A stretch of DNA of 64,000 bases from Escherichia phage FFH2. A model generated the notes under the pieces. It was not told the origin of the DNA. It saw only the letters and a program-made list of their open reading frames with translations, and made no database searches. Position numbers and translations under genes: made by a program. Location of the stretch: the sequence record KJ190158. One strand, 5' to 3'. Of the stretch, positions 29,373-45,928 are shown one piece after another. The first letter of the stretch is position 1. Each line of letters opens with the position of its first letter.

Positions 29373-29499
29373 CACACAATTAGCTGCCCGGCTAAAGTGC
29401 TGGAAGCACCTATAACACATCTTTCAACTAAATTTCCTACCACCACAATCACTTACCTCCCACACATGACTGTTTGCTTGTTTAGTGAGCAGTCATGCC

Positions 29500-29527
29500 T
29501 TGACATTCTTGCCTATCCTGATAAAAT
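29500..29527 (+). promoter_or_regulatory. sigma70-like promoter firing into the ORF-free region
   Basis: TTGACA-16 nt-TAAAAT, just after a CATGACTG...CAGTCATG hairpin (29465-29497). There is no ORF downstream for about 2.3 kb. Confidence 0.5.
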
Positions 29528-30842
29528 TAAGTTCTTCTCTTTTCTTTTACCGAGTAATTCGGGTTTTCTGTTCTCTTCGGTTTGAAGGGGTATAGAGATA
29601 CACCTGAGTGAACAGGGTGAACAACCGAACATTTGGCTATGGCATTAGCATGGCGAAGCGGACGGGTGACGAAAGAGGGGCCGGAGGACACCAGTCACTG
29701 CCATATGATATATGGGTGATAACCTGAAGAGTCTGAATAAGTGTTTAAGTACCAGTCAGAGGAAAAGGTGAATGGTAGCCGAAGGGGGAGGGGGGTTTCT
29801 TGTATCTTTAATTTGTATATTATGTATACACTTGTAAACCAATCTCATCTGAATTTGTTTACCACACAAAGTGGATAGGGACAAATATTACCTATTAAAC
29901 TTGAATTATTTATAGAAATACCACAACACCACTTAAGTCTTTGATTTTACACACAAATCCTACAGATATTCACCCTCCATATTTAACATACCTGTAACAT
30001 ATTCCATACCCTACCTGACCGATCAATTCACCCAACTACATCCCCATATTTTCCCTGTCTGTACTACCCCTGCCCCGCCGGGAGTCCCGTCATATCTGGC
30101 TTTCCAGCAAATATCACACCCACAAATATCATTGCCTGAAGAGGGTTTCATCCCATAATACATGCCTTACCTGAAGAGCGCTTCATACACCACGTAAATT
30201 TTTTAATTGACCCCCTCCCCGCCGCCGGAGAGGTTGGCTTTTCCCACACAGACCTGAAGAGTCAGCCAGAAATATCTGAACAGGTCCAGCTATGCCACGA
30301 TTTTGTGCTTGTCCTACAGGAGTGCCTCCCTGTCAGGAGCCGGTAGCGACTGGAGTGCTGCCAGGCGGACGAAATGGGAATCATTCTCATTCTTATAACA
30401 ATTCTCAAATATCGAGGCAGTGAGGCAAATTAATAGGTGAGGCCGTTCACACAATGGCACAACATTTGCAACCTATCTTGTGGGAGTGAATGAGAATACC
30501 TATCATTGTGAGAATAGTTATCATTACGGGCAATTTAACATAATACCCATTATGCGCACCACTGGCGATCCATACAGGGATTGATAACATGGGTTACTGT
30601 TTACACACATAACAATTATATTTCTTACTATTTGTGTGGGATATAGTTAGCAGCCGATAGATTAGATATTGACCTGTAGACTTCCAACCGTCCAGACGTC
30701 TAAACGCCCACACAACAAGGGTTATACATACACAACTGAATGTAAACAGGGCCGCAAAAATGCTACCATACAAGCTTGTAAATTTTTCATGCAGCACTTG
30801 ACAAAGAGGAGGAAAACTTGTCTGACACTTTAGACACAATAG

Positions 30843-32714: not shown

Positions 32715-32987
32715 TTACTTATGGCGGCAGAATTCAAGCGTTTTTAATTGATAATCTTCCTCAGCCTGGAGTACTACCGCCTCGATCATTTCGTTGGCAT
32801 TGTTAAAGCCATAACCTTTAGCGAACTCATCCGCGCCACCTTCGTGATCATGTTCTGCGTTCATCGCTTCCACAAAATGGAATTCCAAATTGTTGAGGTA
32901 GGGGCTTGATGTTCCGTCCTCTTTTTCGATGAGATCCCAGATAGCATTAAAACGTGATTCGACTTCTTGATTAATCCAGCTTGACAT
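32715..32987 (-). CDS. hypothetical acidic protein
   Basis: 90-aa ORF with a GAGAGGAAAA SD preceded by a GGGCA...TGCCC hairpin and a TTGACA-17-TAACAT promoter. Confidence 0.6.
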   Translation of the reverse strand: MSSWINQEVESRFNAIWDLIEKEDGTSSPYLNNLEFHFVEAMNAEHDHEGGADEFAKGYGFNNANEMIEAVVLQAEEDYQLKTLEFCRHK

Positions 32988-33095
32988 AATGTTTTCCTCT
33001 CTTCTGGTTGTTGTGTGGGCACTTTTGCCCCTTCAAGATAAATGTTACCCCACCCCCTGGCAGATGTCAACGGTTTTTATAGTTCTTATATGACA

Positions 33096-33138
33096 GGCAG
33101 GCCCGGTGATTGTCTCCCCCCGTCGCCAGGTGCCTGCC
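33096..33138 (-). repeat. GC-rich structured element, copy 3 (see 42421 and 42556)
   Basis: Minus strand: GGCAGGCacctggcgacgGGGGGAGACAATCACCGGGCCTGCC. The outer arms GGCAGGC and GCCTGCC are complementary. The core GGGAGACAAYCACCGGG is shared with the 42.4-kb copies. Confidence 0.7.
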
Positions 33139-33198: not shown

Positions 33199-33390
33199 TT
33201 ATATTTTTTCGCCTATGTAGTCCGGTCGGTTTTTCTCTGTCATGCGCTTTAGCAATTCTTGCATGTTACTTATGGCTTGTAGTGTATCCCCTTCCAGGCT
33301 TGAATCAACATAATCAGGATCGTCTATGACCTTTCTATGATTATGATAACGCAGTACCGCTAATACCTTTCTAACTTGTTCGATATTCAT
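33199..33390 (-). CDS. hypothetical protein
   Basis: 63-aa ORF, last gene of a 4-gene mini-operon (33824 to 33199). Confidence 0.5.
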   Translation of the reverse strand: MNIEQVRKVLAVLRYHNHRKVIDDPDYVDSSLEGDTLQAISNMQELLKRMTEKNRPDYIGEKI

Positions 33391-42215: not shown

Positions 42216-42374
42216 TTTTGTACCTCCTCTTCAATTGTTACCTATCCTATAGCATAGGCCCACCAGGTTTACAAGCCTTCATTCTCTCCTACCTGGTCAG
42301 TTAGGTCCTGCCAGGCTGGCCCCACTAGGTTGCAGCGGTTAGTGCATCAGGTTAGAAAAATTTTTTGAAAAGTG

Positions 42375-42403
42375 TTGACAGCGGCCCCGCCAGGTGGCAC
42401 AAT
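42375..42403 (+). promoter_or_regulatory. plus-strand sigma70-like promoter P1 in the ORF-free island
   Basis: GAAAAATTTTTTGAAAA (UP-like), then TTGACA-17 nt-CACAAT. It is oriented opposite to all flanking genes. Confidence 0.5.
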
Positions 42404-42420
42404 ATACCTATCGAAAGGAC

Positions 42421-42493
42421 GGCAGGCACCGGTGACGGGGGAGACAACCACCGGGGATGGGCGCTGCATAAAATGAGAACGGTTATCATTATC
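42421..42493 (+). repeat. GC-rich structured element copy 1 plus Fur-box-like motif
   Basis: GGCAGGCACCGGTGACGGGGGAGACAACCACCGGGG... contains the CCGGTG/CACCGG stem. It is followed by GAGAACGGTTATCATTATC (42475-42493). Confidence 0.7.
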
Positions 42494-42518
42494 ATTTAAA
42501 AATTTATGCAAAAAATCC

Positions 42519-42546
42519 TTGCTTTCTTTGTCCTGTGTGATACTAT
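42519..42546 (+). promoter_or_regulatory. plus-strand sigma70-like promoter P2 (extended -10)
   Basis: TTGCTT-16 nt-TGaTACTAT. Confidence 0.45.
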
Positions 42547-42555
42547 AATAACAAG

Positions 42556-42629
42556 CCGGGGCAACAGGGGCCGGGAGACAATCACCGGGCCTGCCCGTTA
42601 TTCTGCAAACGAGAATGATTATCATTCAA
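42556..42629 (+). repeat. GC-rich structured element copy 2 plus Fur-box-like motif
   Basis: CCGGGGCAACAGGGGCCGGGAGACAATCACCGGGCCTGCCCG followed by GAGAATGATTATCATTCAA (42611-42629). Confidence 0.7.
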
Positions 42630-42742
42630 AATTCTAAATGAGAACTCCTCGCATTTAATAAATTTAATTAGCACGCTAATTACACTCCGTAACAATTTAC
42701 TATAAAATAGTATCCACTAAAATATTCCCATATAGAAATTTT

Positions 42743-43200
42743 AAAAATCCATTTCTGAAAACGAAAAATCGATTTCGTCCCTAAAAATTTCAGGCCTAGA
42801 TCCGGAACGATTTCCAGAAAATCCGATTCAGAAAACGAAAAACAGATCGAGTACTGAGAAATTTATCGAGAAAAATTTTCAGAAAATCCAAGCCCTGAAA
42901 TGAAAAGTAGATCGAGTACCTGGAAAGCTGCACCGCAACTTCAAGATAGTGGTTAGATTGTTACCATAGAAGGTCAAGGGTAAGTGGAGGAAGTTCTAGT
43001 AGAGGGAGGTTAGCATGTGTGGGAAATCTATAATGGTGGCCTGGAATATAGTGCAAACGATAGGATGAGTTATTCAGCTTGTCGCGCCTACTCTGAAAAA
43101 TCCATTTTAGTTTTCGATCCATTTTCTGATTTTCTAAGAATTTTAAAATATCCGGCCCGGTGAAATATCAAAAGGAGGAAATCCATTTTAGAAATCCCCC
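42743..43200. repeat. A/T-rich iteron field: three tandem ~65-73-nt units plus inverted copies of (A/G)GAAAATCC
   Basis: Units start at 42743, 42816 and 42881 (AGAAAATCCnnTTCnGAAAAYGAAAAnnAGATCGAGTAC...). Further AAATCCATTTT copies lie at 43095, 43177 and 43190, with inverted copies at 43115-43135. Confidence 0.75.
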
Positions 43201-43231
43201 TTATACTTGATATGCCAGGAATTTTCAAGTA

Positions 43232-45054: not shown

Positions 45055-45513
45055 TCAACACTTTTTGTACTCCACCACGATAATATCCATATCAAAAGTG
45101 GCAAGGTTAATAACGTCCTCTACGTGCTCCCACTTCAAACCGCCTATGCCGCACCCGATCTTAGGGATGTAGAATGGTAAAGTCGATCCACTGAATACCT
45201 CATTGACTAGCTCAAAGCCTTTCAGGATTGAGAAATATTCAGCATTAGGTCCTGGGTAGAACTGAGTATACAGATTGATTCCGTAGACAATACCTCTCGG
45301 AGATAAGTGCTCCCATCGGGAGAACGCACCCAGTTTACTTAGGCAACCATGTCTGGTCTCTTTGTCAGCTGCCAATGCTTGAGGGAACTCACGGGCAATC
45401 TGTTTTGCTATCCCCTTGCCCATTGTGTGGAAGCAGTTACAACCGTGGATCAGGTGACCAGCACCACTCTTAAAAAGGGAGATTAAATCTCCCTCTACAG
45501 TATCAATAATCAC
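45055..45513 (-). CDS. Macro domain (ADP-ribose binding / ADP-ribosylhydrolase) protein
   Basis: VEGDLISLFKSGAGHLIHGCNCFHTMGKGIAKQIAREFP and PKIGCGIGGLKWEHV match the macrodomain GD...N...G.GIA and IG.G.GG motifs. The start is set at GTG 45513 (GAGGAG 11 nt upstream). Confidence 0.75.
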   Translation of the reverse strand: MIIDTVEGDLISLFKSGAGHLIHGCNCFHTMGKGIAKQIAREFPQALAADKETRHGCLSKLGAFSRWEHLSPRGIVYGINLYTQFYPGPNAEYFSILKGFELVNEVFSGSTLPFYIPKIGCGIGGLKWEHVEDVINLATFDMDIIVVEYKKC

Positions 45514-45928
45514 GGTATGCCAGCTCCTCTTCCACAATTTCAAAAAACTCATCCCAACCTTGTGGCATATTTGAGTTACCGAAGTGGCTTTCATAGTAAA
45601 GGTTCTTACCGCTAGGAAGGTAGAAATCTGTTACCTCATAAAATCCACAATCGTCGCACTCACCTTCTTCAAACTTGGCCTTAACCTTAATACCGAGGAA
45701 GGTGAAAAGTTTATGGACATCTTCAGTTTCGAACTCCCAGGGAATGTTGTTTTCCGCATCGGTGTAGAACTGGATCAGCAGACCATTGTCCAGTTTACCA
45801 AAATACTCTGTGAAGTAACTTCCTTCCCAGAAATCTTTATGACAAATAATATCCATGCGTTTGCCCATAATAATGGTGTGAGCGTTTTGGGCATCGTCAC
45901 GAATCAGTTTTGGCATTTCATAGATCAT
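45503..45928 (-). CDS. hypothetical protein
   Basis: 141-aa ORF that overlaps the macro gene start by 11 nt. Confidence 0.55.
   Translation of the reverse strand: MIYEMPKLIRDDAQNAHTIIMGKRMDIICHKDFWEGSYFTEYFGKLDNGLLIQFYTDAENNIPWEFETEDVHKLFTFLGIKVKAKFEEGECDDCGFYEVTDFYLPSGKNLYYESHFGNSNMPQGWDEFFEIVEEELAYRDY

Follow-up and report, generated by a model that had tools for sequence, protein, structure and literature searches.

A promoter-proximal sequence element of Escherichia phage FFH2 recurs in unrelated phages and may act on early transcription elongation

The genome of Escherichia phage FFH2 (sequence record KJ190158) carries a short GC-rich element that recurs at distant places, each time close behind a promoter, which raises the question of what the element does there. 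We analyzed a stretch of 64,000 nucleotides (nt), referred to as the window, in which a first-pass annotation made from the sequence alone had noticed three copies at two loci and in both orientations. This observation is borne out by exact matches to the 17-mer GGGAGACAAYCACCGGG at 42439-42455 (plus strand), 42573-42589 (plus strand) and 33102-33118 (minus strand), where 0.12 are expected by chance, and none of 100 shuffled windows contained three. Allowing up to three mismatches revealed nothing in the window beyond these exact copies, and a motif profile built from 54 non-redundant instances found in promoter context returned the same three copies only. Because the profile also found no match in positions 1-80,000 of phage rV5, which lie outside the coverage of the window, a Vequintavirus genome carries exactly three copies. 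The phage is itself an rV5-like E. coli myophage, and members of this group (genus Vequintavirus, among them PDX, MaxTheCat, JES2013 and rV5) show 92-97% identity to the region around the motif. As set out below, we lean tentatively, and with something less than even confidence, towards a promoter-proximal pause or elongation-control signal that would act on the early elongation complex or its nascent RNA. The copies and their promoters are as follows.

42375-42403, plus strand: promoter P1 of copy 1, TTGACA-17-CACAAT with TG ahead of the −10 box, called by the promoter scan
42421-42467, plus strand: copy 1, core GGGAGACAACCACCGGG at 42439-42455, profile E = 2e-4
42519-42546, plus strand: promoter P2 of copy 2, TTGCTT-16-TACTAT with an extended −10 TG at 42538-42539, read by eye
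42556-42606, plus strand: copy 2 (unit B), core at 42573-42589, 3′ flank GCCTGCCCGTTATTCTG, profile E = 6e-10
33174-33147, minus strand: promoter P3 of copy 3, TTGCAA-16-TATACT, called by the tool and overlapping a terminator-like hairpin at 33187-33154
33096-33138, minus strand: copy 3 (unit C), core at 33118-33102, profile E = 5e-11
33042-33070, minus strand: second promoter (P168 in the rV5 record), TTGACA-17-TAACAT, about 30 nt after copy 3 and before the gene at 32715-32987

All three copies lie 9-20 nt 3′ of a sigma70-type −10 box and point in the same direction as that promoter. The first-pass annotation had placed the two 42-kb copies just downstream of promoters, and this holds for both. 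P1 is called by the scan, and P2, which with 8 of 12 promoter-box matches falls under the threshold of that scan, is conserved in other genera, where its −35 and −10 boxes are kept at a spacing of 16-17 nt and the spacer sequence changes. The same annotation correctly put the 33.1-kb copy between a terminator and the next promoter, given the hairpin at 33187-33154 on one side and TTGACA-17-TAACAT on the other. It was mistaken, however, in describing this copy as opposed to local transcription. The minus strand carries every gene from ~30.6 kb to 64 kb of the window, copy 3 lies on the strand of its flanking genes (32715-32987 and 33199-33390), and it has its own promoter, P3. The argument for a DNA-level site that had been drawn from an opposite orientation therefore falls. 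Copies 1 and 2 run antisense to their neighboring genes and are aimed into a non-coding, iteron-bearing region of ~1 kb. No terminator was found after copies 1, 2 or 3.

An open reading frame (ORF) known in rV5 as ORF 198 (42347-42625, minus strand, 92 codons) covers both 42-kb promoters together with copies 1 and 2. The two copies are read in different frames of this ORF (PGDCLP versus PVVVSP), and no coding sequence is annotated over unit B in the records of PVP-SE1, CR8, phiTE and phiWec188, so the repeat is a nucleotide-level feature. A protein-coding repeat is ruled out by the two frames and by the absence of the ORF from other genera. Hypothetical proteins of the ORF 198 type have equivalents in many records, an implausible sequence and no counterpart in other genera, and ORF 198 is probably spurious, an annotation artefact. 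For the annotation of rV5-type genomes, the motif would thus explain a doubtful ORF.

The first-pass annotation had proposed a search of relatives for further copies, and this search proved productive. Loci were compared in Seunavirus (PVP-SE1, GAP31, GEC_vB_MG), Certrevirus (CR8, phiTE, POP18), Mydovirus (Mydo, AV124, Klebsiella phage), Avunavirus (Av-05), an unclassified Serratia phage and Phapecoctavirus (phAPEC8, phiWec188, nepoznato). In BLAST searches with short regions, the other genera align over the motif and its downstream part only, and the flanks are unalignable. Promoter-plus-motif units nevertheless occupy the same loci throughout the Vequintavirinae and Phapecoctavirus genera. 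An equivalent of unit B, promoter and motif together, is present in all loci compared; behind it come arrays of AATGAGAATnATTCTCATT palindromes, and iterons built on a GATCGAGA core lie beyond these. An equivalent of copy 3 lies ~10 kb from unit B in all genera compared there (all of the above except Avunavirus and the Serratia phage), usually with a terminator-promoter overlap in front. Copy 1 is specific to Vequintavirus, and other genera hold a different conserved RNA-like segment at its place. The small plus-strand ORFs 5′ of unit B in the other genera show no homology among themselves and offer no conserved partner gene.

Scanning IMG/VR and metagenomes with the exact pattern brought up motif-bearing contigs of a different kind. 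These AT-rich contigs (G+C 0.37-0.43; one is 215 kb long) come from JGI and ENA metagenomes, show no DNA similarity to GenBank phages and share with the window only an HNH endonuclease gene and two weak short matches. In these uncultured, unrelated phages the motif follows dozens of promoters, at five to six non-redundant copies per 12-13.5-kb stretch examined and about one copy per intergenic terminator-promoter cassette. A typical cassette consists of a terminator hairpin, a T-run, TATAAT, ~7 nt, AAUACCUGARAACGGGGGAGACAAWCACCGGG..GCCUGU.UUU and TGTAAC-type repeats. A 168-kb IMG/VR contig has a single copy, between two promoters, and a Pseudobdellovibrionaceae metagenome-assembled genome carries one convincing copy. 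A scan of 185,000 species genomes gave 23 matches, a number in line with chance, of which one, the Pseudobdellovibrionaceae copy, looks genuine and the remaining 22 look like chance matches in GC-rich coding DNA. The lack of the motif from bacterial genomes beyond chance, and from E. coli, is counted below in favor of elongation control.

The layout of these units bears on whether they are small RNA genes, in which short transcripts would expose GGAGACAAUCACC, either as a seed or for protein binding, and work in trans. Copies 1 and 2 stand alone and are antisense to their neighbors, several metagenomic units have a terminator 40-60 nt 3′ of the motif, and the near identity of a 20-mer between unrelated phages could be explained by a conserved host target. 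However, copies 1-3 lack a following terminator, and most units continue into a second promoter and a gene. A complementary site is absent from the window at up to three mismatches. Among 5,426 E. coli genomes nothing resembled the copy-2 region, although that search is blind to a short complementary target. With the motif also missing from Rfam, we regard trans-acting small RNAs as quite improbable.

The recurring unit is a motif of ~30 nt that comprises a variable GC-rich, hairpin-prone segment, a G-run, the near-invariant 13-mer GGAGACAAWCACC, GG, (R)CCUGCC and a U-rich stretch. Information content peaks over GGAGACAAWCACC and the next GG, and a second patch, GC(C)UG plus a U-rich tract, follows 5-15 nt downstream. 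Purines make up 65% of the motif and 43% of its upstream flank. A −10-like hexamer lies 21-33 nt 5′ of the core in 54 of 54 non-redundant instances; it matches TATAAT in at least five of six positions in 87% of them, versus 20% at random positions in the same loci. Taken together, these observations make it very likely that the motif is a real, selected and promoter-coupled element.

The cassettes themselves offer a simpler account, in which the motif is a functionless passenger of a mobile terminator-promoter module spread by recombination. The PeSLs (promoter-early stem-loops) of T4-type phages consist of a terminator stem-loop fused to a sigma70 early promoter and lie in intergenic regions of early gene clusters; their promoter is followed by a Shine-Dalgarno sequence and start codon, and no conserved 30-nt GC-rich leader is described for them (PMC4122927). 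Copy 3 and the metagenomic copies are embedded in cassettes of this layout, which copies 1 and 2 do not share, and copies do turn over, as in a metagenomic Vequintavirus contig (L014) where a copy-2-like unit stands in place of copy 1. In contrast to PeSLs, the motif and a further 60-150 nt, often with a second promoter, precede the gene, and the phages concerned are not T4-type. Furthermore, the 13-mer is conserved far better than the terminator, spacer or promoter flanks of its cassette, and genera with flanks too diverged to align have kept the motif at two orthologous loci. We consider this explanation very improbable indeed.

What is conserved in the motif is chiefly its primary sequence, with no global fold. 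The first-pass annotation had drawn two stems, GGCAGGC/GCCTGCC at the 33.1-kb copy and CCGGTG/CACCGG at copy 1. Both are present in the sequence and the outer arms GGCAGGC/GCCTGCC pair in the minimum-free-energy fold of copy 3, but the CCGGTG/CACCGG stem goes unused in that of copy 1 and neither stem is kept in orthologues. Most copies allow a different structure to be drawn, a mini-hairpin just 5′ of the G-run that varies in sequence between classes and ends at a constant distance from CACC. In the window it would be CCG-GUGA-CGG at 42429-42438 (copy 1), CCGG (42556-42559) with CCGG (42571-42574) in copy 2, and CCUG-GCGA-CGGG at 33130-33119 (copy 3), and other examples are CUG-GAAA-CAG, CUCC/GGAG, GUGC/GCAC and CGGG/CCCG. 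Contig L014 shows one clean compensatory change, from CCGG/CCGG to CCAG/CUGG, and in phage navn a C-to-U change in the mini-hairpin keeps a G.U pair. Stems of at least four base pairs occur in the allowed window in 80% of instances and in 59% of shuffles, a difference that is not significant, and the mini-hairpin therefore remains unproven.

The position of the motif provides a rationale for the reading that we favor. It is always promoter-coupled and co-oriented, falls at ~+15 to +45 of the predicted transcript, shows no fixed spacing to the −10 box and keeps its sequence in phages that infect different hosts, all of which points to a signal read during early elongation, whether in the nascent RNA, the non-template strand or the elongation complex. 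The 12-nt spread in the −10-to-core distance, in particular, fits reading during elongation better than polymerase contact at the promoter. Transcription would start at a host sigma70-type promoter 10-20 nt upstream, and the motif would then work in cis, on the elongation complex at an early stage or on the nascent RNA of that complex, as a strong pause or loading signal, with a logic like that of ops, nut or put. The RNA 3′ end in the paused complex would lie at the last C of CACC, which is 42452 in copy 1 (~+43 relative to the P1 start) and 33105 in copy 3 (~+36). The G-tract at −12 to −16 could form the downstream arm of a small hairpin, and the mini-hairpin would end 12-14 nt upstream of this putative 3′ end. 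A complex paused in this manner may load a factor or read through the terminators that follow each cassette; alternatively, it may act on the AT-rich operator and iteron DNA next to it, by opening or priming this DNA. We infer the transcription of the motif, the pausing and all of these downstream consequences from sequence features.

This register can be compared with the E. coli pause logo. The logo has G at −10, Y at −1 and G at +1, together with a G-rich stretch that begins at −14 and is read as the downstream arm of a pause hairpin lying 11-13 nt upstream (PMC10268239). When the last C of CACC is set to −1, G−10 is found in 51 of 54 instances, Y−1 in all 54 and G+1 in 46, and the same number (46 of 54) have all three. 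The −16 to −14 positions are G-rich in 42 of the 54, and the best stems end 11-15 nt upstream.

Several observations weigh against a pause signal. The register was picked after the fact, and G−10/Y−1/G+1 is not rare within a 17-mer. All 13 bases of the core are about equally conserved, which goes beyond what a generic pause needs, and a specific reader is still missing. The eight copies without G+1 have A in its place, and a hairpin spacing of 12-14 nt is at or just past the 11-13 nt typical of pause hairpins. Across 15 unit-B orthologues RNAalifold predicted no shared pairing, the folding z-scores are mixed (lowest −3.8, for CR8 unit B; highest +0.9, for CR8 copy 3), and the excess of stems over shuffles is, as noted, not significant. 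For copies 1 and 2 there is no gene downstream that could be regulated. Among 20 early ORFs of the window (109-207 amino acids) we recognized no antiterminator, NusG paralogue or RegB homologue; these ORFs gave no NusG or KOW match and no informative Pfam match, although N-type proteins are too small and divergent to be excluded by such a search. A literature search found no transcriptome or small-RNA study of the Vequintavirinae.

If elongation is the step at which the motif acts, known elongation signals are the natural comparison, and the first-pass annotation had already pointed to HK022 put and lambda nut. The resemblance in promoter-proximal cis placement stands, and extends to relatives and unrelated phages: like put and nut, the motif occurs shortly after early promoters, once per transcription unit and directed with transcription. 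Membership in either family is not supported. HK022 put is a conserved two-stem-loop RNA of ~65-70 nt, whereas the motif has no consensus fold, and local alignments of four copies against 12 kb including the HK022 immunity region scored 20-30 when 30 shuffles had a mean of 24 and a maximum of 32. No sequence within 100 nt of a copy matches the lambda nut boxA (YGCUCUUUA) on the proper strand, even with one mismatch allowed. In the manner of boxB, copies 1 and 3 can form GNRA-type loops (GUGA and GCGA), but such stems are not above chance across the family. We know of no N-like gene in these lytic phages.

The ops element, the RfaH loading site in enterobacterial operon leaders, offers a further parallel, as it too is short (12-13 nt), nearly invariant and orientation-specific, lies in a transcribed leader, has G−10/Y−1/G+1 and is carried on horizontally moving DNA. 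The motif differs in being much nearer its promoter and phage-specific, and the ops/RfaH sequence GGCGGTAGnnTG, allowing up to two mismatches, neither overlaps nor adjoins any copy. Pauses of the his- and trp-leader type likewise have G−10, Y−1, G+1, a G-tract from −14 and a hairpin, which in the motif is a possible one. However, all 13 motif bases are conserved, the hairpin is statistically unproven, and no leader peptide or attenuator follows. With the rrn leader the motif has only the 8-mer AGACAATC in common, and 115-167 of 500 shuffles share as much. A T7-type promoter was considered on account of GGGAGAC, which resembles the T7 initial transcribed sequence, and was set aside because conservation lies downstream and not upstream of the G-run and because, to our knowledge, these phages encode no RNA polymerase. 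Pseudo-ToxI, known from the related phage phiTE, has no similarity to the motif. A tRNA remnant, suggested by a tRNA-Met annotation in the Klebsiella phage record OY978796.1, was rejected when ARAGORN detected none in the window and none in six related loci, among them the locus in that record where the tRNA-Met is annotated over the homologous spot.

Searches of Rfam agree with these comparisons. The window has no match at the gathering threshold, 42300-42700 gives chance-level hits only (E > 5), and four related loci yielded nothing relevant. Overall, the motif departs in at least one defining feature from each of put, nut, ops, the RegB site, PeSL, tRNA-like elements and every Rfam family. 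The first-pass remark that it belongs to no recognizable family is therefore upheld, and our literature search found no paper that prints the motif. These differences leave room for a previously undescribed promoter-proximal control element with a sequence code of its own, common to unrelated phage lineages, which we put forward as possible but doubtful. In such an element, GGAGACAAWCACC and the mini-hairpin would be read by host RNA polymerase itself or by a small unrecognized factor, and the complex would be paused and re-programmed, for example into a terminator-resistant or R-loop-forming state.

An alternative to a signal for the polymerase is a post-transcriptional element of the 5′ leader, either a Shine-Dalgarno-like purine stabilizer bound by the 30S subunit or S1, or a site for a RegB-type endoribonuclease. 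In its stabilizer version, the 30S subunit or S1 would be retained near the 5′ end of the RNA by GGGGGAG, which frequently recurs 16 nt further on as CCGGGGGAG. Polypurine 5′ stabilizers have a precedent in the early RNA of Bacillus phage SP82. The location of the motif at the extreme 5′ end of predicted transcripts, its purine excess over the upstream flank, its GGAG followed by an A/C-rich run and its place ahead of genes in metagenomic cassettes are all consistent with such a role. Like T4 RegB sites, it combines GGAG and an A/C-rich single-stranded run in early leaders, but it does so away from the Shine-Dalgarno position. The RegB/S1 target is the 11-nt sequence GGAGRAYARAA (PMC1702504), to which the variant cores GGAGUACAAAA, GGAGGAUAAGA and GGAGGAUACAA match in 10 of 11 positions. 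The commonest core, GGAGACAAWCA, breaks these rules with C at position 6, a purine at position 7 and C at position 10, all of them disfavored, and a match to the T4 site was rejected on this ground. In addition, GGAG lies within a predicted stem in some copies, the early ORFs scanned include no RegB homologue, and copies 1 and 2 as well as several metagenomic units have no downstream gene, the latter with a terminator within 40-60 nt. Shine-Dalgarno mimicry would also leave the conservation of ACAAWCACC unexplained. We therefore judge a leader-RNA function, in either version, to be unlikely.

Conservation of primary sequence without structure would fit a double-stranded DNA site, whether an operator or roadblock just behind the promoter for a phage or host protein or part of an origin- or partition-type nucleoprotein region with palindromes and iterons. 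The sequences that follow copies 1 and 2 are relevant here.

42472-42493: Fur-box-like palindrome after copy 1, GAGAACGGTTATCATTATC, the best match at 16/19 to GATAATGATAATCATTATC
42607-42629: Fur-box-like palindrome after copy 2, GAATGATTATCATTC, 15/19, kept after unit B in all related genera and an Aeromonas phage
42726-42926, plus strand: three direct repeats of 62 nt each, 65-74 nt apart, core GATCGAGTAC, 3′ of copies 1 and 2

Fur-box-like sites of at least 14/19 number 10 in the window and 0-7 in shuffles. Arrays resembling protein-binding sites regularly follow the motif, as Fur-box-like palindromes in enterobacterial phages and as TGTAAC repeats in metagenomic phages, and iterons adjoin copies 1 and 2. 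Many copies also contain the direct repeat CGGGGGAG-N8-CGGGGGAG, and the 3′-flank alleles of copies 2 and 3 agree within each of seven genomes. A DNA site, however, would need one reader for the same 13-mer in phages that share no backbone genes, has no dyad symmetry and would have to tolerate a promoter distance that varies by 12 nt. Some sense-strand changes are compensatory or compatible with G.U pairs, a hint of pairing, and no candidate binding protein was identified. On balance a protein site on DNA seems to us rather improbable.

The same surroundings invite a further explanation for copies 1 and 2, namely that they are G-rich primer or R-loop RNAs that activate an origin, as do the tandem promoters of the T7 origin, T4 oriF/oriG and ColE1 RNA II. 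Their tandem promoters, 134 nt apart, aim into AT-rich palindromes and the three 62-nt direct repeats; this layout is kept across genera, and the RNA-like strand is rich in G and purines. Against this, GC skew shows no switch at 42-43 kb, no mapped origin exists in this phage group, and neither copy 3 nor any of the dozens of copies in each metagenomic phage lies at an origin, their places being ordinary intergenic cassettes. An origin-activating role is accordingly very unlikely in our estimation.

Should the favored reading be correct and the motif control elongating host polymerase, it would represent a new signal, compact and portable, that serves widely differing phages, some of which have it in nearly every early intergenic region. 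It would also provide a testable route by which lytic phages without an RNA polymerase of their own shape early transcription. Were its role RNA stabilization or protein binding instead, the motif would still qualify as a candidate new curated family with more than 50 non-redundant members, and it supplies a sequence tag for early promoters in uncultured phage contigs.

Additional features were noted around the copies in the window. The 3′ flank of the core exists as two alleles, GGGCCTGCC and GGGGGTGCC, and copies 2 and 3 share their allele in seven of seven Vequintavirus genomes, the present phage among them, as GCC/GCC in six and GGG/GGGG in rV5. In this small sample of seven genomes, the agreement hints at gene conversion or at co-adaptation to a common partner. 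The sequence GGCCCGGTGA at 43154-43163 repeats the 3′ part of copy 2 (TCACCGGGCC) perfectly in inverted orientation and may be the remnant of a fourth, minus-strand copy, with a profile score that is not significant.

Copies 1 and 2 belong to a stretch of ~1 kb (42216-43231) that lacks a convincing gene and contains Fur-box-like palindromes, AT-rich repeats and promoter-like sites. Its layout, with TCGATCGAGA iterons, is kept across genera. The 62-nt repeats, into which transcription from P1 and P2 would be aimed, look like origin iterons, and the stretch as a whole looks like a replication origin or major regulatory hub, although GC skew has no switch at this place. Palindromes of the AATGAGAATnATTCTCATT form stand in arrays of up to seven or more behind unit B in every related genus and the Aeromonas phage; such palindromes also lie at 30373-30391 and 30492-30525 of the window, and examples in compared loci are at L028 1290-1500, L029 1238-1350 and L055 6825-6890. 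This pattern suggests that a conserved host protein, for instance Fur, or else a phage protein common to these genomes binds there. Several Fur-box-like sites, together with GC-rich patches, also occur at ~29450-30600 (rV5 104014-106617), a stretch between convergent plus- and minus-strand gene blocks that has no annotated gene in rV5.

In all non-Vequintavirus genera, a second promoter 5′ of unit B is followed by a highly conserved segment of ~100 nt, ACAGGAGAGGAGACGCCACCCCACGGCGAAAAGGCGGGGCUAAC...GGAAGGUGGAUCGCCGGUAG, at L029 1003-1135, L030 1000-1135, L027 1020-1140, L028 1045-1190 and L031 985-1110. The segment contains a motif-reminiscent GGAGACGCCACC stretch and matches no Rfam family, and the window lacks it, with copy 1 standing at the corresponding position; judged by its sequence, it looks like a structured non-coding RNA. 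In the Klebsiella phage record OY978796.1 (10349-11044; L031), annotated tRNA-Lys, tRNA-Ile and tRNA-Met genes overlap the promoter and motif region and are not confirmed by ARAGORN; their coordinates in that record appear to be misplaced.

Two observations concern the metagenomic phages. In some of their cassettes (L069 940-1000 and 2440-2500, and L077), a heptamer, TTGTCTC, separates the −10 box from the predicted start and is exactly complementary to GAGACAA in the core. The resulting TTGTCTC/GAGACAA inverted repeat spans the start site, and its pairing is probably not transcribed. Finally, the early region of the window encodes a Macro-domain protein (45055-45594, minus strand, E = 2.7e-6), and the motif-rich part of the 215-kb metagenomic contig encodes an ADP-ribosyltransferase (ART-PolyVal, E = 1e-11; L089 1360-1956), so that ADP-ribosylation functions are found near the motif in both phage groups.

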